Shown here in pieces: positions 683 to 60,590 of a DNA stretch of 64,000 nucleotides; position 1 is the first letter of the stretch; every line of letters begins with the position of its first letter. Both the position numbers and the translations under genes were made by a program. Below the pieces are notes generated by a model. That model ran no database searches, was not told the DNA's origin, and saw only the letters and a list, made by a program, of their open reading frames with translations. Source of the DNA: Bacillota bacterium (lineage in GTDB: Bacteria; Bacillota; Clostridia; Acetivibrionales; DUMC01); assembly GCA_013314855.1 (NCBI GenBank), contig JABUEW010000002.1:13511-77510 (forward strand), read 5' to 3'.

Positions 683-3600
683 TTATGCCTTCTCAATTCT
701 TATTCTGCTGCCCAACCCATCGGCTGTAGGAGGCTCTACAATTAACCTCCTGTAGATGCGTTGCTTCATTTCGGGTACATGGCTTATCACCCCAATCACC
801 CTCTCTGTTGTGCTCAAGCGTTCAAGGGCGTCTATAACCATATCAAGGAGCTCCCTATCTAAAGTACCGAAGCCTTCATCAAGGAAAAAGAATTCCAGGG
901 GGCTTTGTCCCTTTAATTGTATTTGTTTTGATAGCGCAAGAGCAAGGCATAGGGAAGTAATAAAGGTTTCACCCCCCGATAATGAGTTAACCATCCTGTG
1001 TACCCCGCCATTTATATTATCCCTTATTACGAAACCTATATCCGGCTCTAATTCCAATGCATACCTGTACCTGGTCAATGTGCCCAATGTTTCCGAAGCT
1101 TCACGGGCAATATATCTTAATCTTTCTTCTGCTACAAAGTCAATAAAGTTATTTCCCCTTAACAGGCTTTTTATTTGTTCCAGCATATCCGCTTTCCGGG
1201 ATAATTCATTATTTTTATTGTTTAAAACCATCCACTCTTCATGCTTTTCCCGGGTCCTGTCAAAATTGCTCTTTGCTACTTCATACTGTGAGGATGCCTT
1301 ATCTTTTGTTTCAAGCTTTTCCCTGTATAATGCTTCTATTTTATGCCATTCTTCTTCTGTGATACTCCGTCCTCCTAATTTATGTAAAAGTATGTTTTTC
1401 TGTGCTGCAAGGTTTCTTTCAATCTTTTCATATTCATCAATTTCATCTTTCAGAGTCTTTTGAGCTTCTTTGCTCAACATGGATTTTTCCACATCCTGGA
1501 TGCTGTTGAAGCCTTTTTCTTTCAAAGCATTCTCAAATCTTTGAGATTCCCGCTGTAAATTCTCTTCGAATATTTTCACCTGGTTTTCCAGGGTGTTTTT
1601 TTGCATCTTCCGGTTGTTATATTGTTCTTCCAGGCTCTTTACCAGTTCAGACAGCATCTTTTCTTTTTTCCCCATGTCCAGTATTTTATTTTCAATAATC
1701 TTAATGTTTTCCTCTATTTCACTTATACCTATACCGGCATTGGACAATACATTAATACTACTTTCACCTAAAAGTTCCCTTACTTTGGATTCTTTTTCTT
1801 CCTTTATTTCTCTTGTATTTTTATAATTTGTATCCAGTTCGGCAAATTGGCTGCTCATCTGCCTTCTTTCTTCCTGCAGTTTGTCAAGCCTTTCTCTTGT
1901 TGTCTTTTGAAGTTCCTGCAGTTTTTTTATCTCTTTCTGCAGTCTATCAATTTCTCTTTCATTGCCAGAAATCCGTTCAAGTTCAAAAGAAGCACCTTTA
2001 ACATTATATTTATCCAAAAACTCTTTATATAATTTTTCTTTCTCGTTGAATATTTGTAAGGATTCCTCTGTTTCTCTTTTTGTTTGTTCCAGTGTTTCCC
2101 TATTCACCTGTAATTGAGATTTAATACTGCTTTCACTAACTTTAAAACCGTTTAATATGTCTTTTCCCTTTTTTATGTTATCATTTATGGCATTAAGCCT
2201 TTTTTCCCATTTATCAATTTCCCTTTTCTTATCCTCAGCCTGCATGTTTATCTTTTCAATTTCTTCTTCCATTGCTTCCACACTTAATGTGCGTATTTTA
2301 TCAGGCAGATTATCTATTAGCCTGTCCAACTCACCCCTTTTTGCCAGAATATCCTGCTTTAATTGCGTAATTTGCATTTCTGTATTACTTATCTGTCCGC
2401 TTATCTCAATGTGTCTTTTCTCTGCCTCCATAAAAGCAGCTTCAGCTTTTGAAAACAAATCTTCAGCCTCCCTTAGCATATCTTCCAGAATAAGCGTATT
2501 CTCCAGTTTAAGATTCCCTTTCTCATCTTTTACAGCATATTCTGATCCTGCATGTTCTGCATATTCTGATTGAAATGCCGGACTGGGATGATGTGTGGAC
2601 CCGCATACCGGGCAAGGCTCTCCTTCCCTTAAGCTTTTTGACAAAATATATGCGGTATCCTGTTCTATTCTCTTTCTGATGTTTTTTACTTCCTCATCCC
2701 TCTTTTCCATTTCAATTTTAATGGTATCTTTATAAGCCTGTGTCTTTTTCAGGTTTTCTTTGTATTTGCCAAGTGCCTCCATTTTTTCCTGGAGCCTTGA
2801 TTCCATGGTGTTTATATCTGCCGTTTTAGATTTGAGAGTATTTAAAGCAGATTTAAGTTTAAGATACTGCTCAATTATTTGGGTTAACTCCTCCCTTTCT
2901 CCAGGCTTAGCCTTTTCGTGCTCGGCAAGCTTGGCATCCAATAGTTTTAAATTCTCTTCCGCATTATTAGTATTTTTTATGATTTCAGCAAGTTCAGTTT
3001 CCAGCCTGCTTACTTTAGAAGCAAGATTATATTCCTTTTTTCTAAGAACCTCAATATTCTTTCCAGCAGCATTAAGCTCATTTTCAAGATTTACAGCCTT
3101 TTGCACTTCATTTTTATACTCCGGATCAACTTTTAAATTTTCAATTGTTAATTGGTACTTGCCGATATCTTCTTCCATAGCTGTGATTTTTATTTTTATG
3201 TTCCCTGCTTCCTTTTCTTTCAAAACAGCACTTCTTTTAACTTCCTCAATGCTGTTATGTAATATATTTATTCTATGTTCAAGCTGCTCAATTTCTTTCT
3301 TTATCTCCAGTGCATTTATAAGTTTTGTTTTATTTTCAAGCAGTCTTGGGGTCTCAATTTCCAGATTTTTGCGCTGCTTTTCCAGTTGCATTTTAGCGTC
3401 CGAAAGTTCTTTCTCTAAGTCCGGCAACCCGCTTATAACCTGGTCCAACTGTTTTTGAGTTTCCTCAAACCTTGTAACGGCATCTTTGTAACTGTTTATC
3501 ATGTCTATTAATCCTTCAGCTTTAATTGACCTATCCAATAAATCCTTTTTTCTATTGACAGTTTCCAAATTGGATAAATGGGCTTTTTCCTTTTTCTCAA

Positions 3601-4387
3601 CAAATTCCAGTTCACCAACAAGCTGCCAGACTTCTTTTGCTTCTTCAAACTTTTTTTCCAGATTCTTTAACTCATTCGCCGCCCTTTCCCTGGCCGCTTC
3701 AGCCTCTTTGAACTCCTCTTCAGCCTTGAATAGTGCTTCTTCAGAAGCGTCACCCAATGCAGATAAAGCTCCTTCCAGGTTTGATAGTTTTATTTTTGTT
3801 GCCGATATCTTTTCAGAAAGTTTCAGGTTAAGTTCCTTCCCGTATTCTTCCAGGTAAAAGATGCGCTCCAGCATATCTCTTTTCCTGGCTTTCTCCATCA
3901 GCAGAAATTCTTGAAACTTATTTTGCGGAAGCACCACAGCCCGGGTAAAATCATCATGCTTTAAACCCAGAAGTTCTTCAATTTTGCTGTTTACATCACC
4001 CAGTCTGTCAGCAATAGGTACTTCAACACTATCACATTCTTCTACAAGTCTCGCCAGTTTTGCCTCACAGGAGTTTTCAGAGCCTTTCTTCCTGTTATAT
4101 ACCCTTTCCACTCTATATGTTTTCCTCTCATTATCTTTCAGCAAATCAAACCTGAAGGTTACTTTAACTCTGTTGCAATCCGTGTTTATAATTCCCTGGG
4201 TTCCCATGTTTGCCCTGTGTACTTTGCCATAAAGAGCCAGGGTAATTGCATCAAGCACTGTTGATTTCCCACTTCCCGTCGGACCAAAAATACCAAAAAG
4301 CCCCGTTTCACTCAATTCATCAAAGTCAATTTTCTGCAATTGCTTAAAACTTTGCAAACCTTCTATTTCAAGATATCTGGGTCTCAT
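683..4387 (-). CDS. sbcC: SbcC/Rad50-type DNA repair ATPase
   Basis: Walker A FGPTGSGKST. Very long coiled-coil region with a central CPVCGSTHHP zinc hook. C-terminal LSGGE signature and FFLDEGFG Walker B. Start moved to MRPRYLEIEGLQSF (ATG at 4387), overlapping the sbcD end. Confidence 0.9.
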   Translation of the reverse strand: MRPRYLEIEGLQSFKQLQKIDFDELSETGLFGIFGPTGSGKSTVLDAITLALYGKVHRANMGTQGIINTDCNRVKVTFRFDLLKDNERKTYRVERVYNRKKGSENSCEAKLARLVEECDSVEVPIADRLGDVNSKIEELLGLKHDDFTRAVVLPQNKFQEFLLMEKARKRDMLERIFYLEEYGKELNLKLSEKISATKIKLSNLEGALSALGDASEEALFKAEEEFKEAEAARERAANELKNLEKKFEEAKEVWQLVGELEFVEKKEKAHLSNLETVNRKKDLLDRSIKAEGLIDMINSYKDAVTRFEETQKQLDQVISGLPDLEKELSDAKMQLEKQRKNLEIETPRLLENKTKLINALEIKKEIEQLEHRINILHNSIEEVKRSAVLKEKEAGNIKIKITAMEEDIGKYQLTIENLKVDPEYKNEVQKAVNLENELNAAGKNIEVLRKKEYNLASKVSRLETELAEIIKNTNNAEENLKLLDAKLAEHEKAKPGEREELTQIIEQYLKLKSALNTLKSKTADINTMESRLQEKMEALGKYKENLKKTQAYKDTIKIEMEKRDEEVKNIRKRIEQDTAYILSKSLREGEPCPVCGSTHHPSPAFQSEYAEHAGSEYAVKDEKGNLKLENTLILEDMLREAEDLFSKAEAAFMEAEKRHIEISGQISNTEMQITQLKQDILAKRGELDRLIDNLPDKIRTLSVEAMEEEIEKINMQAEDKKREIDKWEKRLNAINDNIKKGKDILNGFKVSESSIKSQLQVNRETLEQTKRETEESLQIFNEKEKLYKEFLDKYNVKGASFELERISGNEREIDRLQKEIKKLQELQKTTRERLDKLQEERRQMSSQFAELDTNYKNTREIKEEKESKVRELLGESSINVLSNAGIGISEIEENIKIIENKILDMGKKEKMLSELVKSLEEQYNNRKMQKNTLENQVKIFEENLQRESQRFENALKEKGFNSIQDVEKSMLSKEAQKTLKDEIDEYEKIERNLAAQKNILLHKLGGRSITEEEWHKIEALYREKLETKDKASSQYEVAKSNFDRTREKHEEWMVLNNKNNELSRKADMLEQIKSLLRGNNFIDFVAEERLRYIAREASETLGTLTRYRYALELEPDIGFVIRDNINGGVHRMVNSLSGGETFITSLCLALALSKQIQLKGQSPLEFFFLDEGFGTLDRELLDMVIDALERLSTTERVIGVISHVPEMKQRIYRRLIVEPPTADGLGSRIRIEKA

Positions 4388-38079: not shown

Positions 38080-38850
38080 TTATAATACATTTCTTCCGCT
38101 GTCCTTATCAATATAAAGTATTGCATTATCATGCTTCCTCAAAATAGATGCAGGGCATTCTTCACTAATTCTGCCCTTAATTGTATTGGTAACGGCTTCT
38201 GTTTTCGTGTTTCCCGGAACCATACAAAAAATATATTTTCCTGCCATAAGAGCCGGTATTGTGAGTGTTATCGCATACTTGGGCACATCGTCCAGTGTTT
38301 TGAAACATCCGTCATTTACCTGTTGTTGCCTGCATTTTTCCTCCAATTCTACAACCTTTACAAGTTTCTTATCGTTAAAATCCGCAACAGGAGGATCGTT
38401 AAAAGCGATATGTCCATTCTCTCCTATACCCATACATACAATATCAGTAGGGTATTGCTTTAATAGAGTGGAATACCTTTCACATTCCTTTTCCGTGTCT
38501 TCGGCACTTAAATCAATATAGTTTACCGATTTGAAGCTTACTTTGCCGAATATCCTCTCTTTAAGAAAATTTCCAAAAGCCTGTGGTGCATCTTTAGATA
38601 TTCCTACATATTCATCCATATGGAAAGCATTAATCCTGCTCCAGTCAATATCCTTTTCTTTTACCAGCGAAGCTAAAAATTCGTTCTGAGAAGGAGCAGC
38701 AGCAAAAATAATATTAATCTCCTGCTTTTCCTGAAGAAGCTCCCTGATTTTAACGGCTGCTTCTTTTGCAGCTTCTTCTCCCAGGGCCTGTCTTGAGTCA
38801 AATACCTTAACAATTAAACTGTCAACTTTCATTTCTTTAATTTTACTCAT
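38080..38850 (-). CDS. nagB: Glucosamine-6-phosphate deaminase (NagB/6-PGL family)
   Basis: IIFAAAPSQNEFL, HMDEYVG and MGIGENGHIAFNDP motifs. Confidence 0.85.
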   Translation of the reverse strand: MSKIKEMKVDSLIVKVFDSRQALGEEAAKEAAVKIRELLQEKQEINIIFAAAPSQNEFLASLVKEKDIDWSRINAFHMDEYVGISKDAPQAFGNFLKERIFGKVSFKSVNYIDLSAEDTEKECERYSTLLKQYPTDIVCMGIGENGHIAFNDPPVADFNDKKLVKVVELEEKCRQQQVNDGCFKTLDDVPKYAITLTIPALMAGKYIFCMVPGNTKTEAVTNTIKGRISEECPASILRKHDNAILYIDKDSGRNVL

Positions 38851-38994
38851 TTAATATAACCTCCTATATTTCAGTGTTTTGCTTATCATTAATACAATTT
38901 TTTGTAATTTATATGCTTTATAACTATCGACATTAATAAACGTTTCTTCTGCCCATTGTCACTGCTCCAAATCATATGTGAATAAGTATTTAGT

Positions 38995-39008
38995 AGTAAT
39001 CGTTTACT
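38995..39008. promoter_or_regulatory. cre-like / LacI-type palindrome upstream of nagB
   Basis: AGTAATCGTTTACT is a near-perfect palindrome. Extended by one base, the minus-strand 15-mer (38994-39008) differs from the WTGNAANCGNWNNCW cre pattern at one position. About 145 nt upstream of the nagB start. Confidence 0.3.
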
Positions 39009-39133
39009 ATATTAAGTTTACATCAAAATTACTGAAATGGCAAGTAATATAAAATAATAAATCCTTTTGAACCGGAAGACTAACTGCCTCCTATGCATTC
39101 AAACGGATTTTATAAAAAATCTTCTTGAATATC

Positions 39134-39162
39134 TTGAATATATAATATAGATATGATATAAT
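39134..39162 (+). promoter_or_regulatory. Sigma-A type promoter for the small zinc-ribbon gene
   Basis: TTGAAT (39134-39139), 17-nt spacer, TATAAT (39157-39162), preceded by TG (extended -10 TGATATAAT). Confidence 0.55.
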
Positions 39163-39202
39163 TCCTTTATTAGTATAGATTTAATTAACCTATAGACCTT
39201 AT

Positions 39203-39262
39203 CCTCCTTAATTAATTTGGAGATAATAGTCAAGTTAATTAAATCTCCAATTATTAAGGAGG
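39203..39262 (+). promoter_or_regulatory. 5'-UTR hairpin sequestering the Shine-Dalgarno sequence
   Basis: CCTCCTTAATTAATTTGGAGAT (39203-39224) pairs with ATCTCCAATTATTAAGGAGG (39243-39262): 20 bp with two single-nt bulges and an 18-nt loop. The 3' arm is the AAGGAGG SD, 7 nt before the ATG at 39270. Confidence 0.65.
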
Positions 39263-39269
39263 TGTTTGT

Positions 39270-39461
39270 ATGGCAGATAAGACTCTTATTTGCAAGGATT
39301 GCAATAGTGAATTTGTTTTTACCGAAGGAGAACAGGCCTTTTACAAAGAAAAGGGCTTTCAGAACGAACCGCAAAGGTGTCCTGAGTGTAGAAGAGCAAG
39401 AAAACAGCAAAGAAGAAATAATGCTGGCTTCGGTTCTCGTAGATTTGGTGAAAACAGGTAA
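39270..39461 (+). CDS. Small zinc-ribbon protein (zf-trcl-like, CxxC...CxxC) with a basic tail
   Basis: MADKTLICKDCNSEFVFTEGEQAFYKEKGFQNEPQRCPECRRARKQQRR... The gene has its own promoter, SD and terminator. Confidence 0.75.
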   Translation: MADKTLICKDCNSEFVFTEGEQAFYKEKGFQNEPQRCPECRRARKQQRRNNAGFGSRRFGENR

Positions 39462-39484
39462 AATTAATTGCCACATTATTAAAT

Positions 39485-39518
39485 AAAGGAGAGTGTATAC
39501 TCTCCTTTATTTAGTTTT
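39485..39518 (+). terminator. Rho-independent terminator
   Basis: AAAGGAGAGT-GTAT-ACTCTCCTTT forms a perfect 10-bp stem, followed by ATTTAGTTTT. Confidence 0.8.
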
Positions 39519-39655
39519 GGAATACTTCAATCAATTATTGGATCGGGAATACATACGGGAATACATAAAAATTACATGTTCACATTTCTTAATATATATT
39601 ATATTATTAAATATATTAAATATATATTTATATATATTTAATATTTATATAATAC

Positions 39656-39702
39656 TAATATTGCAATGTTTAATATTGGTTTAATATTGTAATGTTTAAT
39701 AC
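39656..39702 (+). repeat. Direct repeat TAATATTG(C/T)AATGTTTAATA x2 just upstream of the acyl-CoA ligase RBS
   Basis: The copies start at 39656 and 39682 (26-nt period) and end 3 nt before GGGAGG. Candidate operator. Confidence 0.4.
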
Positions 39703-39719
39703 TCGGGAGGTGAATAATT

Positions 39720-41441
39720 ATGAAAAATATTCCTCTTTACGACGTGAGACCCATTAGAAACTTGAAGGATATGATTAATTCAAGTGTAGATATTTTTGGA
39801 GAAAAAACCGCATTTTTAGTAAAGAATAAGTCCGGCAACGACAATAATTACAGTCCTATAACCTATAAACAGTTTAAGTATGACTTGGATGCAATAGGGA
39901 CTGCACTTTTAAATTTAGGTTTAAAAAATAAAAGAATCGCCTTAATCGGTGAAAACAGGTATGAATGGGCAATATCGTATCTAGCAGTTGTGAATGGGAC
40001 AGGAGTTGTTGTCCCTCTGGATAAAGACCTTCCGCAGAACGAAATTGAGAATCTCCTCAGAAGGTCCGAAGCAAATGCAATCATTTTCTCAGGCAGTATT
40101 TATCCTCAAATAAAGGAAATAATCAGAAATAACAACTCTGTAGAATATTACATAAACATGGACGGCATAGAAGATGATGACAGTATTCTTGCATTCAACA
40201 AGTTGCTTGAAAAAGGGAAAGAACTTCTGGATAAAGGAGATAAAAGTTTTATTGATGCAGAAATTGATGAAAAAGTCATGAATATTCTATTATTTACTTC
40301 CGCAACAACCGATAAATCCAAAGCGGTAATGCTGTCTCACGAAAATATATGCACCAATCTTATGGCCATGAGTTCAATGACATATATTGATCCTACGGAT
40401 ATTTTCCTATCAGTACTACCTATACATCATACATACGAGTGTACCTGCGGATTTCTATGCCCCCTCTACAGAGGAGCCGCAATTGCTTACTGCGAGGGCT
40501 TAAGGCATATACTAAAGAATCTCCAGGAATCAAAAGCTACAGTAATGCTCGCAGTCCCATTAATTTTTGAAGCCATATATAAAAGAATATGGGAACAAGC
40601 TGCAAAAAGCGGATCAGCCAATAAACTTAAAACAGGAATAAAAATAAGTAATTTTTTGCGTAAGTTAGGTATAGATATTACAAAAAGGTTATTTGCACCC
40701 ATATATAATAATTTTGGTGGTAATATAAGGCTGTTTATAAGTGGGGCTGCTCCTATTGATCCCTATGTTTCAAAAGGCTTCAGGGACTTTGGTTTAACAT
40801 TTATACAAGGGTATGGACTTACCGAGTGCAGCCCGATAGTTACACTAAATAGAGATGTGTACTTCAAAGATGACGCAGCCGGCCTTCCCCTTCCCGGATT
40901 AGAAGTAAAAATTGATAATCCTAATGAAGAAGGAGTGGGTGAAATCATAGTTAAAGGAAAAAATGTTATGTTGGGTTATTATCAGGATGAAGAAGCAACA
41001 TCAAAAGCTTTGAAAGACGGGTGGTTTTATACCGGCGATCTGGGATATATTGATACAGACGGATTTATACATATTACAGGAAGGAAGAAGCATGTTATAG
41101 TTACAAAAAACGGTAAAAATATTTACCCGGAAGAAATTGAAATCCTTTTGAATAGAAGCCCATATATTAAAGAATCTTTAGTTTACGGAAAAAATGATGA
41201 AGTTTACGGTGATGTCGTAGTTTCAGCGGTAATAGTCCCCGACATGGACAAAATACAGGAAGATTTTAAAGACCAGGCCCTCTCCGACGAAGAAATTTAT
41301 AATTTAATAAAAAAAGAAGTTAAAGAAGTAAATAAAAAACTTGTAATGTATAAATATATTAGAGACTTTAGTTTGCGTGAAAATGAATTTGCAAAGACTA
41401 CAACGAAGAAAATAAAGCGCTATATGGAAAAAATGAATTAA
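39720..41441 (+). CDS. AMP-binding long-chain-fatty-acid--CoA ligase family enzyme
   Basis: LLFTSATTDKSKAVMLSHENI (AMP-binding motif I variant), GYGLTEC, YTGDLGYID and GRKKHVIVTKNGKNIYPEEIE. Confidence 0.8.
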   Translation: MKNIPLYDVRPIRNLKDMINSSVDIFGEKTAFLVKNKSGNDNNYSPITYKQFKYDLDAIGTALLNLGLKNKRIALIGENRYEWAISYLAVVNGTGVVVPLDKDLPQNEIENLLRRSEANAIIFSGSIYPQIKEIIRNNNSVEYYINMDGIEDDDSILAFNKLLEKGKELLDKGDKSFIDAEIDEKVMNILLFTSATTDKSKAVMLSHENICTNLMAMSSMTYIDPTDIFLSVLPIHHTYECTCGFLCPLYRGAAIAYCEGLRHILKNLQESKATVMLAVPLIFEAIYKRIWEQAAKSGSANKLKTGIKISNFLRKLGIDITKRLFAPIYNNFGGNIRLFISGAAPIDPYVSKGFRDFGLTFIQGYGLTECSPIVTLNRDVYFKDDAAGLPLPGLEVKIDNPNEEGVGEIIVKGKNVMLGYYQDEEATSKALKDGWFYTGDLGYIDTDGFIHITGRKKHVIVTKNGKNIYPEEIEILLNRSPYIKESLVYGKNDEVYGDVVVSAVIVPDMDKIQEDFKDQALSDEEIYNLIKKEVKEVNKKLVMYKYIRDFSLRENEFAKTTTKKIKRYMEKMN

Positions 41442-41497
41442 CACAACAAGTTGAGTTAACATAATTAGTTAAGTTAAGTTAAGTTTTTTGTTACAAC

Positions 41498-41514
41498 ATA
41501 CCCATATGGGGTAT
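41498..41514. promoter_or_regulatory. Palindrome ATACCCATATGGGGTAT abutting an extended -10 (TGTATAAT, 41517-41524)
   Basis: Perfect 10-nt core CCCATATGGG. The position is typical of a repressor operator for the glutaredoxin-like/S41 genes. Confidence 0.4.
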
Positions 41515-41551
41515 ATTGTATAATAACCGAAATTTTTTAGGAGGTAATTAT

Positions 41552-41782
41552 ATGAAAGTTAAAGTATATTCAACACCCACATGCCCCTGGTGTACAGTGG
41601 CCAAAAAATATCTTGCTTCAAAAAACGTAGTTTTTGAAGATTTAGACGTATCGGCAGATAGGAATGCTGCCATAGAAATGGTCCAAAAATCCGGTCAAAG
41701 AGGGGTACCGGTAATTGATATTGACGGCAATATAGTAGTGGGCTTTAACCAGGATGCTATTGATAAATTATTAAAGTTGTAG
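41552..41782 (+). CDS. Glutaredoxin-like protein (YruB/NrdH-like)
   Basis: MKVKVYSTPTCPWCTVAKKYL (CPWC redox motif) and GVPVIDIDG. AGGAGG 7 nt upstream of the ATG at 41552. Confidence 0.8.
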   Translation: MKVKVYSTPTCPWCTVAKKYLASKNVVFEDLDVSADRNAAIEMVQKSGQRGVPVIDIDGNIVVGFNQDAIDKLLKL

Positions 41783-44935: not shown

Positions 44936-45011
44936 GGCCCATTGGTCAAGAGGCCTAAGACACCGCCCTCTCACGGCGGAAACAGGGGTTCGAATCCCCT
45001 ATGGGTCACCA
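44936..45011 (+). tRNA. tRNA-Glu, anticodon CUC, CCA encoded
   Basis: Folded by hand: acceptor GGCCCAT/ATGGGTC, anticodon stem CCGCC/GGCGG with loop CTCTCAC, T arm AGGGG-TTCGAAT-CCCCT, discriminator A + CCA. Colinear with classical tRNA-Glu. Confidence 0.85.
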
Positions 45012-59195: not shown

Positions 59196-60590
59196 CTAAT
59201 CCTTTTTCTGGGCAAGCATAGCCTGAAGTTTTTTTGCAGCCTCAGGGTCGCCTATGTGAAGAGCATCATATGCCTGCTGTGATGTCTTAAAAGGCCCGCA
59301 CCCTTTTCCATGCCAATCAAGATTGTTATACATGGGATTTTCCCTTCCGGTTTCCTTTTCACGTTTTGCTATATGTTGAAACATACGTTCCTCAAGCATC
59401 TTTACAACTCCAGGTTCTTTTTCAGCAACATTATTATTTTCTTCCGGGTCCTTAATTAAATTATAAAGCTCTACTTCAGGCTTGAAGTGGAAATCCGGCT
59501 CCAAGGCACGGATAAGTTTCCATTCGGGAGTTCTCCAACCATGCTTTCTCATCCATGTACATTCGGTGATATAGAATTCCGGTTCCGGCTCCCTATACTC
59601 ACCCCTTGTTAAAGGCATAAGACTTCTTCCATCGAAACGAATACCGGTATCAATTCCCAGGATCTCCAAAATTGTAGGCATAATATCCTTAAGCTGGCAA
59701 TAATCCGTATACCTCTTCCCTTCAGGAAGTTTTCCCGGGAAACGCAGCACCAAGGGGACAGTCAACGTACAATCATAAAGTCCGTGATGATCAAAGTAAC
59801 AGTCATGGTCATAGAGAGTTTCCCCATGGTCGGATGTAATAACAACCAGGGTTTCGCCTTCAATGCCCAAAGCTTCCAGTTTGGTTAGGATATTCTGTAT
59901 GCAGGCATCCATATAAGCAATTGCACCATCGTACTGGGCAATTATATAATCCTTATCGGTGCATCCCGGTGGGAACCAGGTCAAGAAATAGTCCCTGAAA
60001 GGCTTAAACTGATATACAGGTTCAAGGGATTTATTATTTGGGTCAAACTCATTTCCGCCATAGAATATTCTGTGAAATGGTTCTGGAGGAAGATATGGAG
60101 AATGAGGGTCCATGTGGCGCATAAAAAGGAAGAACGGTTTGTCTTCCTTTGCAAGGCGTTCCAATTCGGGAATAGCTACCTTGTTGAGATTTTCAGCTTT
60201 TGGTGAGCGTCCCTTTTCCCAGGAACCCCAGGCCTCATATTCAATATACTTGCCAAAGCCACGGGATGCAGGATTACCGCCAAATCCAATACATGTGGAA
60301 TTGTACCCGTTTTCATTAAGTACCTCTGCCAGAGTTTTTATTCCATCTGCAATTCCGCCTTTATGTCTTAAAGCTACAATATTTGTTCCGAAGCAATCCA
60401 TACCGGTAAGCATAGAGCCATAACCTGATGTAGTAGGTACACTAGGGCTAAAACAGTGCTCAAACACTATACCTCCCTGGGCATATTTATCTATATGGGG
60501 TGTAGTAAGGTGCTCATAGCCGTAAAGGCTCATATGGTCAGACCTTAGGCTGTCAATTCCGAATAACACTAAATTAGGTTTTTTAGCCAT
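59196..60590 (-). CDS. Alkaline-phosphatase-superfamily 'sulfatase-like' enzyme lacking the C/S-x-P-x-R formylglycine motif
   Basis: Sulfatase-fold motifs PNLVLFGIDSLRSDH, HMDPHSPY and ITSDHGE. At the nucleophile site the sequence is FSPSVPTTSGYGSMLTG instead of C/S-x-P-S-R-xxx-LTG. No signal peptide. Start at MAKKPN (60590) after AAAGGAG. Confidence 0.75.
   Translation of the reverse strand: MAKKPNLVLFGIDSLRSDHMSLYGYEHLTTPHIDKYAQGGIVFEHCFSPSVPTTSGYGSMLTGMDCFGTNIVALRHKGGIADGIKTLAEVLNENGYNSTCIGFGGNPASRGFGKYIEYEAWGSWEKGRSPKAENLNKVAIPELERLAKEDKPFFLFMRHMDPHSPYLPPEPFHRIFYGGNEFDPNNKSLEPVYQFKPFRDYFLTWFPPGCTDKDYIIAQYDGAIAYMDACIQNILTKLEALGIEGETLVVITSDHGETLYDHDCYFDHHGLYDCTLTVPLVLRFPGKLPEGKRYTDYCQLKDIMPTILEILGIDTGIRFDGRSLMPLTRGEYREPEPEFYITECTWMRKHGWRTPEWKLIRALEPDFHFKPEVELYNLIKDPEENNNVAEKEPGVVKMLEERMFQHIAKREKETGRENPMYNNLDWHGKGCGPFKTSQQAYDALHIGDPEAAKKLQAMLAQKKD

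Follow-up and report, generated by a model that had tools for sequence, protein, structure and literature searches.

A conserved leader with two competing folds probably gates translation of PF13451 zinc-ribbon genes

How can a gene be expressed when its ribosome-binding site is fully paired with a complementary stretch of its own leader? The question is raised by a small locus of the window, as the whole 64,000-nucleotide (nt) stretch of the Bacillota contig JABUEW010000002.1 analyzed here is called. At positions 39134-39518 of the + strand, a gene for a zinc-ribbon protein of 63 amino acids (aa) lies between its own promoter and its own terminator, and its Shine-Dalgarno (SD) sequence faces a perfect upstream complement (anti-SD). 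A preliminary description of this DNA read the arrangement as a hairpin that keeps translation off until it melts in a thermometer-like manner or is opened by some other trigger. Based on the comparison with homologous leaders, the gate is a toggle between two folds and not simply a melting hairpin; the leader is of the SD-sequestering two-state kind, and the whole feature, 39134-39518, is larger than was described before. As judged by sequence comparison, both folds are conserved and covarying in about 60-80 homologous leaders, the element preceding this zinc-ribbon gene in many Clostridia, and the 5' untranslated region (5' UTR, approximately 39170-39269) is probably a conserved two-state translational gate, a degree of confidence that applies to the gate itself and to no single trigger. 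From the switch proposed before, sequestration and gating stand, whereas the melting hairpin gives way to a toggle with a competing conserved fold, built by a long-range helix, P1, in which the anti-SD pairs with an SD mimic.

Results

The hairpin that sequesters the SD sequence, hereafter the CLOSED fold, is formed by an anti-SD arm, CCTCCTTAATTAATTTGGAGAT (39203-39224, with the anti-SD core CCTCCTT at 39203-39209), and an SD arm, ATCTCCAATTATTAAGGAGG (39243-39262, with the SD core AAGGAGG at 39256-39262 and GGAGG at 39258-39262), the 5' arm lying one base to the left of its place in the preliminary text. This hairpin corresponds to the minimum free energy (MFE) fold of 39165-39290 calculated with RNAfold (-29.9 kcal/mol, z = -2.87), none of 200 shuffled sequences folding as well. 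Both arms are recognized from the sequence, from RNAfold and from covariation, and are also recovered by an inverted-repeat search. The base of the hairpin is a perfect CCUCCUU/AAGGAGG helix, in agreement with the complementarity pointed out earlier, and a 7-nt spacer separates the SD from the ATG at 39270. The predicted accessibility of this SD, 0.0013, is the lowest among the 63 SD-plus-start sites of the window (median 0.48), the second most sequestered "SD" belonging to the start at 60139 of a spurious open reading frame (ORF) antisense to a 481-aa gene. Also, in the window the CLOSED fold is predicted to cover the AUG, with the 5' strand of helix P1 pairing with the spacer and the first codons; this extension is not conserved, cognate strands pairing no better than non-cognate ones (7349 of 10000 permutations). 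A transcription terminator or attenuator reading of the SD hairpin was discarded, a terminator having been called unlikely in the preliminary description as well: in the aligned homologues, A residues mostly dominate the tail that follows GGAGG (UAA...), and a promoter/terminator site scan called no terminator-like site in the window.

In the second fold, OPEN, helix P1, together with P2, joins a 5' strand at 39177-39197 to a 3' strand at 39229-39246, AGATTTAATTAAC (39177-39189) pairing with GTTAATTAAATCT (39234-39246) and GAC (39195-39197) with GTC (39229-39231). P1 closes a domain of approximately 70 nt. At its tip, an internal mimic of the SD, GGAG (39219-39222), serves as an anti-anti-SD by pairing with the anti-SD CCUCC, and the real SD is free. 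The anti-SD arm is the toggling element, whose partner is either the SD mimic or the real SD. Both P1/P2 strands are supported by folds, repeat search and covariation, and the 5' strand also by the test with cognate strands given below; for the mimic, the basis is RNAalifold, covariation and folds. The homologous upstream regions share the motif GATTTAA..GAC..CCTCCTT..TTGGAG..GTC..GTTAAATCCAAA..AAGGAGG-ATG, and in one leader subclass the SD mimic is separate from a TTGGAT that pairs with ATCCAA.

The two folds compete for the anti-SD and share 39243-39246, four nucleotides common to the P1 3' strand and the SD arm that constitute a hinge. The P1 3' strand sits within the 18-nt "loop" of the SD hairpin (39225-39242), a loop that is conserved among homologous loci and complementary to a stretch upstream of the anti-SD, and the P1 5' strand lies outside the hairpin, the helices thereby crossing each other. 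Because no linker separates the P1 3' strand from the SD arm, full-length P1 and the SD hairpin should be unable to coexist; from this geometry, the full-length helices would be mutually exclusive, or would at least largely exclude one another, as is the case for the alternative states of translational riboswitches.

The upstream regions of 80 genomic loci encoding homologues of the zinc-ribbon protein were collected and compared. Folded one by one, leaders cut before the SD adopt the same closed domain of 65-78 nt in most of these loci, and full-length leaders mostly adopt the SD hairpin; for 23 leaders folded together, RNAalifold picks P1 plus CUCC:GGAG. A covariance model built from this P1/CUCC:GGAG structure detects the motif immediately before the gene in most loci, with about 60 of the 80 protein-selected loci at E < 0.01. 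The alignment guided by this model, which comprises 60 leaders (55 distinct), was used instead of a plain MAFFT alignment of 55 upstream regions, which was too poor on the 5' side.

In the 55 distinct leaders, 87.8% of the cells of the OPEN fold hold standard pairs, and the pairs of the SD mimic (columns 41-44 with 66-69) are formed in 90.9%. The OPEN fold shows 95 double-change cells, compared with 37.8 +/- 4.8 after shuffling (0 of 500 shuffles reach 95), and a covariation score of 0.309, compared with 0.182 for shuffled alignments and 0.034-0.112 for slid controls. For the CLOSED helix, taken as the 10 pairs at and beside the SD, 88.6% are paired, 40 double-change cells are observed versus 17.2 +/- 3.1 (0 of 500 shuffles reach 40), and the score is 0.292 versus 0.186, slid controls giving at most 0.154. 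The CLOSED helix is absent from the covariance model, so the alignment was not fitted to it, and the covariation of the two arms, suggested earlier as a check, is found in the homologous loci at this level.

Moreover, an alignment-light test compared the pairing of each leader's own strands with that of strands exchanged between leaders. Cognate P1 strands pair at -10.2 kcal/mol and non-cognate ones at -7.6 kcal/mol, the corresponding values for the anti-SD arm and the SD arm being -16.2 and -12.0 kcal/mol; in neither case is the cognate mean attained by any of 10000 permutations. Control pairs of unrelated segments show no difference between cognate and non-cognate combinations, and the result was repeated on a second, overlapping set with metagenome leaders added. 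Also, G.U combinations exceed A.C combinations by 114 to 33 in OPEN and by 55 to 15 in CLOSED (approximately 3.5 to 1 in both), and the covariance model scores 76.7 bits on the + strand versus 37.5 bits on the - strand. The G.U excess and the strand asymmetry therefore indicate that the pairing acts in RNA and not as a DNA operator. GC-richer relatives, such as L058, L061 and L080, have the same architecture with different sequences. Finally, P1a and the hinge are conserved in sequence beyond pairing needs, a U.G pair is conserved at columns 12-95 (UG in 31 of the 55 leaders), and the domain is rod-like, the majority of conserved positions being, by inspection of the alignments, paired in at least one of the folds.

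According to nearest-neighbor predictions, CLOSED is favored over OPEN by a median of 5.6 kcal/mol in 56 leaders folded with 25 nt of coding sequence attached. Leaders folded alone prefer CLOSED in 82% of cases at 37 °C, the median advantage being 3.7 kcal/mol. When the window transcript is folded sequentially, the anti-SD pairs with the SD mimic once nt 39223 emerges and P1 closes at 39243-39247; OPEN is the MFE fold for transcripts ending at 39243-39259, and the flip to CLOSED occurs only from 39263 on.

Regarding temperature, the predicted probability of an unpaired SD in the window leader rises from 0.001 at 37 °C through 0.005 at 60 °C to only 0.013 at 70 °C. Over 55 leaders, the balance between the folds from 15 to 60 °C shows no consistent trend, rising in 28 and falling in 27 with a median change of 0.0 kcal/mol, and equilibrium thermosensing in either direction was rejected on this ground. 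For the leader of Acetivibrio thermocellus, the predictions put the two folds at almost equal energy, and heating to 70 °C lowers SD accessibility to 0.13, the value at 37-50 °C being 0.43. This leader alone looks cold-ON, but inverse-thermometer behavior is not family-wide, and the window leader leans the opposite way.

Two further structural details are seen in the window transcript. A self-complementary octamer, TTAATTAA, occurs three times in the leader (39181-39188, 39208-39215 and 39235-39242), and its copies add window-specific alternative pairings, such as 39208-39219 with 39231-39242 (92% complementarity). On the other side of the AUG, codons 2-8 (39273-39293) are predicted to form a 9-bp hairpin, GCAGAUAAG...CUUAUUUGC, directly past the start codon and in both folds.

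The association between leader and gene was addressed by a gene-blind metagenome scan with a DNA pattern of the P1, anti-SD and hinge elements that includes neither SD, ATG nor coding sequence. The scan returned 68 stretches, 19 of which score as the motif (E <= 3.7e-7); all 19 directly abut a downstream PF13451 homologue, and the other 49 contain neither the motif nor the gene. Paralogous copies (second and third ones) have leaders of their own, both among the tandem copies of Cloacimonadota loci and in the second copy of Clostridium aciditolerans. The occurrence of a Clostridia-type motif in a second phylum suggests that leader and gene may have been transferred horizontally together. As a separate observation, the Cloacimonadota loci from metagenome-assembled genomes (L006 at 2594-3627, L028, L032 and L040) hold two to three tandem PF13451 gene copies, and in L006 a separate leader was found before at least one downstream copy.

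In the window, a sigma-A-type promoter (39134-39162) precedes the leader, with the -35 element TTGAAT at 39134-39139, a 17-nt spacer and the extended -10 element TGaTATAAT at 39154-39162 (TG at 39154-39155, TATAAT at 39157-39162). It is the promoter pointed out before, and the top promoter-like site within 38800-39800 (10/12 matches plus TG). Of 54 leaders, 53 are preceded by a TTGnnn-17-TGnTATAAT promoter, with a median of 29 nt from the -10 end to P1. Since this conserved promoter lies upstream of the leaders, the whole motif is expected to be transcribed, which argues against the possibility that the anti-SD arm is left out of the transcript.

Neighboring genes are not conserved past local synteny in the 80 loci. 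In 5 of them (L044, L047, L049, L053 and L059), an ORF for a DEAD-box RNA helicase is found at a distance of up to 3 kb, on the same strand in 4, which gives a weak hint of a link to RNA remodeling, some of these loci coming from related species; just 1 of the 80 has a csp gene close by. The motif is also carried by A. thermocellus, with 53.3 bits (L149, 2899-3003, CP013828.1). At one locus (L008, 1843-1957), an insertion of approximately 113 nt lies within the leader, between hinge and SD; it is bounded by inverted repeats, CTACAGCGGCAAT/ATTGCCGCTACAG, contains a GC-rich hairpin and looks like an element of the miniature inverted-repeat transposable element type that splits the motif from the gene, which retains its own SD.

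No match to 39165-39270 was found in Rfam 15 even at E <= 10, and the leaders of 7 homologous loci gave no Rfam match at E <= 1, the sole match at gathering score in the window being a tRNA (44936-45008). No description of the motif was found in the searched literature, and publication beyond it is possible. The leader is a candidate new Rfam family and probably an undescribed translational switch. A weak match of the covariance model within the window at 41480-41554 (E = 0.17), which precedes a glutaredoxin-like ORF, was judged to be due to chance, being an unrelated small hairpin, ATACCC-catat-GGGGTAT, plus a strong SD.

The ORF downstream of the leader (39270-39461) encodes the 63-aa zinc-ribbon protein described before, here classed as a zinc ribbon or treble clef with a CxxC...CxxC arrangement and a basic, Gly/Arg-containing tail. 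It belongs to PF13451 (zf_Tbcl), with E = 7.5e-26 and 90.3 bits against a cut-off of 24 over residues 2-48; in NCBIfam, no family scores above cut-off. A homologue search found 1395 sequences, very strongly conserved. In 40 aligned homologues, 24 columns are invariant and fit MADKTLxCKDCxxEFxFxEGEQxFYxEKGFxNEPxRCPxCR, both cysteine pairs (C8/C11 and C37/C40) being invariant. The C-terminal tail differs between homologues, with many Gly, Arg and Asn residues and frequently a final RW. An AlphaFold2 model (mean predicted local distance difference test score of 74.5) shows a beta-hairpin and two helices, the second of which begins at the second CxxC. Based on charge and tail, the protein would bind nucleic acids. 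Searches of the literature, the Protein Data Bank (PDB) and structures gave nothing on the function of PF13451. The small zinc proteins of Methanosarcina described as CxxC-x17-CxxC (PMC12704099) have a different cysteine spacing, x17 versus x25 here, and were not used for comparison.

Discussion

In the mechanism proposed here, the OPEN fold, in which P1 closes the domain and the anti-SD CCUCC holds the GGAG mimic, would leave the real SD and the AUG single stranded. This domain would be complete before the SD is transcribed, so that the mRNA would be born translatable; after birth, it would fall, or be driven, into the more stable CLOSED fold, in which the anti-SD arm pairs with the SD arm. 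P1 must give way in this step because its 3' strand becomes the loop and four nucleotides are shared. Promoter and SD are both near consensus, and control should therefore be post-transcriptional. Such a sequence of events resembles that of kinetically trapped leaders, as in the 5' UTR of the phage MS2 maturation gene and in hok mRNA, where a transient co-transcriptional fold sets translation and then relaxes to a closed one. However, those leaders belong to phages and plasmids and have other architectures, whereas the leader described here is chromosomal and widespread and has an explicit SD-mimic decoy.

Several points weigh against this two-state reading. The alignment used for the OPEN fold was fitted to the OPEN structure, P1a (GAUUUAA/UUAAAUC) is mostly sequence-conserved in the main class, and much of the covariation stems from P1b/P2 and from divergent classes. 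Energies and folding order are nearest-neighbor predictions without pseudoknots, and the barrier of approximately 21 kcal/mol calculated for the nested path from OPEN to CLOSED is an upper bound for the same reason. Four leaders (L004, L005, L048 and L074) are predicted to be more stable in OPEN. A partial pseudoknot, with P1 intact and a 7-bp anti-SD:SD helix, is sterically conceivable, and the states may not be strictly exclusive. Finally, the zinc-ribbon protein has no relative in the PDB by sequence, and a Foldseek search of the PDB gave no significant match.

Regarding the trigger of the two-state gate, the favored ranking places autogenous feedback first and a kinetic or cold-dependent mechanism second, followed by other trans-acting factors and then by a small molecule or ion. 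If the gate is accepted, it is tentatively proposed that the small basic zinc-ribbon protein would bind or remodel its own leader and favor CLOSED. This trigger is preferred because the motif occurs with one gene family only and follows its paralogues, because promoter and SD near consensus point to post-transcriptional control, and because P1a and the hinge are conserved beyond pairing needs and the product is small and basic. Similar traits are known from autogenous operators of RNA-binding proteins (ribosomal-protein leaders such as L20 and S15, thrS and infC): the leader is found only before its own gene, specifically upstream of that of the putative regulator, it accompanies paralogues, the SD is hidden by structure, and a small basic protein is produced. 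Unlike in those systems, RNA binding by PF13451 and mimicry of a cellular target are here candidate properties only. With the gate again taken as given, purely kinetic or cold-dependent persistence of OPEN has a lesser claim, equaled by that of another trans-acting factor (a helicase, an RNase, a small RNA (sRNA) or a CsrA-like protein), and control by a small molecule or ion is unlikely. A broader proposal can be made with low confidence only, namely that these leaders form an undescribed and widespread class of cis-regulatory RNA in Clostridia and some Cloacimonadota, an anti-SD/SD-mimic/SD toggle that would be born open, kinetically trapped and then closed by catalysis or stabilization through its own product, the latter, a universally conserved zinc-ribbon protein, being an RNA-binding or RNA-remodeling factor, possibly of SD:anti-SD-like helices, that would gauge its own activity via the leader.

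Among the other explanations, the one that survives best, although we consider it rather unlikely, is a kinetic, cold-favored switch with no dedicated ligand, in which a metastable OPEN fold lasts longer in the cold or under slow remodeling, translation being up in the cold and decaying with mRNA age in the warm. The known case of this type is the cold sensor in the 5' UTR of Escherichia coli cspA (Rfam RF01766). That cspA mRNA 5' UTR was reportedly described as a cold sensor by Giuliodori and colleagues in 2010. As in cspA, two alternative folds exist here, one of which exposes SD and AUG, the translatable fold is predicted to be favored early or co-transcriptionally, and a strong promoter is combined with probable post-transcriptional control, to which the near-consensus promoter and the near-perfect SD point. 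Moreover, OPEN is predicted to form first, CLOSED to be more stable and the barrier to refolding to be high, P1a has a single G-C pair, all its others being A-U, and a helicase gene lies near 5 of the 80 loci. On the other hand, the likeness to cspA does not extend to homology, there being no Rfam match, nor to the product, a zinc ribbon and not a cold-shock domain, and csp genes are not linked. Sequential MFE folding, in predictions without pseudoknots, does give OPEN first, but no conserved equilibrium trend or cold preference is predicted, and the barrier estimate neglects pseudoknotted strand-exchange routes. The helicase association is weak and comes partly from related species, and the sequence conservation of P1a and hinge exceeds the needs of a purely physical sensor.

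Another trans-acting factor that opens or locks the gate is less plausible still as the whole explanation. It could be a nuclease, with RNase III-type cleavage of either P1 or the 20-bp hairpin, or else a DEAD-box helicase; an sRNA could target the anti-SD arm, and a CsrA-like protein could bridge the GGA sites at 39219 and 39258. Long near-perfect helices are typical for double-strand-specific RNases, the two GGA motifs are 39 nt apart with one within the SD, and some loci have the helicase gene mentioned above, but nothing specific singles out any candidate, and a motif exclusive to one family is less expected for the target of a global regulator.

For a small-molecule or ion riboswitch, the P1-closed domain would be the aptamer, and the ligand would stabilize OPEN to give a translational ON switch. 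The architecture is similar to that of ON platforms such as the adenine-responsive add leader of Vibrio vulnificus, in which a 5' domain closed by P1 also competes with an SD-sequestering helix, the states are close in energy, and the order of co-transcriptional folding matters; here too, a conserved, covarying structured domain lies upstream of the SD, and its closing helix competes with the SD sequestrator. In addition, the balance between folds is roughly temperature-compensated, and a zinc protein as product makes a metal ligand conceivable. However, this explanation is improbable: unlike in add-type riboswitches, no junctioned aptamer or pocket is evident, the domain being a rod-like hairpin with an anti-SD:SD-mimic tip and no multi-stem junction, most conserved nucleotides pair in one fold or the other by inspection, and the motif is bound to a single, non-metabolic gene family (19 of 19) and has no Rfam relative.

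A simple RNA thermometer, in which heat would melt the SD hairpin and turn translation on, as had been suggested for this locus, is very improbable. As in the ROSE and fourU elements, a hairpin of the 5' UTR sequesters the SD, in the window the AUG is also covered, and the middle of the stem is AU-rich and bulged. Nevertheless, with the perfect helix at its base, the hairpin is predicted to be too stable to melt physiologically, and folding at several temperatures leaves the SD paired up to 70 °C, so that the melting proposed earlier did not hold up. Moreover, thermometers of this kind differ from a leader that is conserved in sequence and covaries over many genera together with a conserved competing fold; heat-induced melting would leave the conserved P1 and SD mimic unexplained, the 55 leaders show no common temperature trend, and SD accessibility falls on heating in A. 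thermocellus.

A DNA-level operator, with the inverted repeats binding a dimeric transcription factor, can practically be set aside despite the palindromic arms just downstream of the promoter, given the preference for G.U over A.C in both helices, the strand-asymmetric score, the identity of one arm with the SD itself, and arm sequences that vary with complementarity kept. Attenuation by a leader peptide or stalling was also rejected: reading by eye of the window and of main-class leaders, with no systematic scan, revealed no ATG, GTG or TTG at SD spacing past the internal GGAG.

A covarying two-state leader before PF13451 genes would imply tight translational control over the dosage of this protein. 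It also gives an experimental handle on the function of the PF13451 protein, because the agent that makes the leader flip would hint at that function. For RNA biology, the leader is a compact example of an SD-mimic decoy, with approximately 80 natural variants, one of them in the genetically tractable A. thermocellus.

Other features of the locus

The gene ends at an intrinsic-terminator-like hairpin (39478-39518) that makes it, with the promoter, the self-contained unit described earlier. This terminator is stronger than was claimed, a 17-bp palindrome (39478-39515; -27.6 kcal/mol, z = -7.8) followed by a U-rich tail, compared with a 10-bp stem; the latter corresponds to the G+C-containing core (39485-39494/39499-39508), after which comes ATTTAGTTTT. 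The palindrome has A-rich and U-rich flanks at both ends and could terminate transcription in both directions, and its stem includes an SD-like string, AAAGGAGAG. Rfam matches to MIR529 and L20_leader (E = 0.089) fall on this palindrome, far below threshold, and were treated as noise.

Downstream, the intergenic region 39544-39701, which precedes an acyl-CoA ligase gene (39720..), contains two copies of an exact direct repeat, CGGGAATACATA, at 39544-39567 and AT-rich tandem repeats, among them a 26-nt unit present in approximately 2.4 copies at 39640-39701. All these repeats may be operator or UP-like elements.

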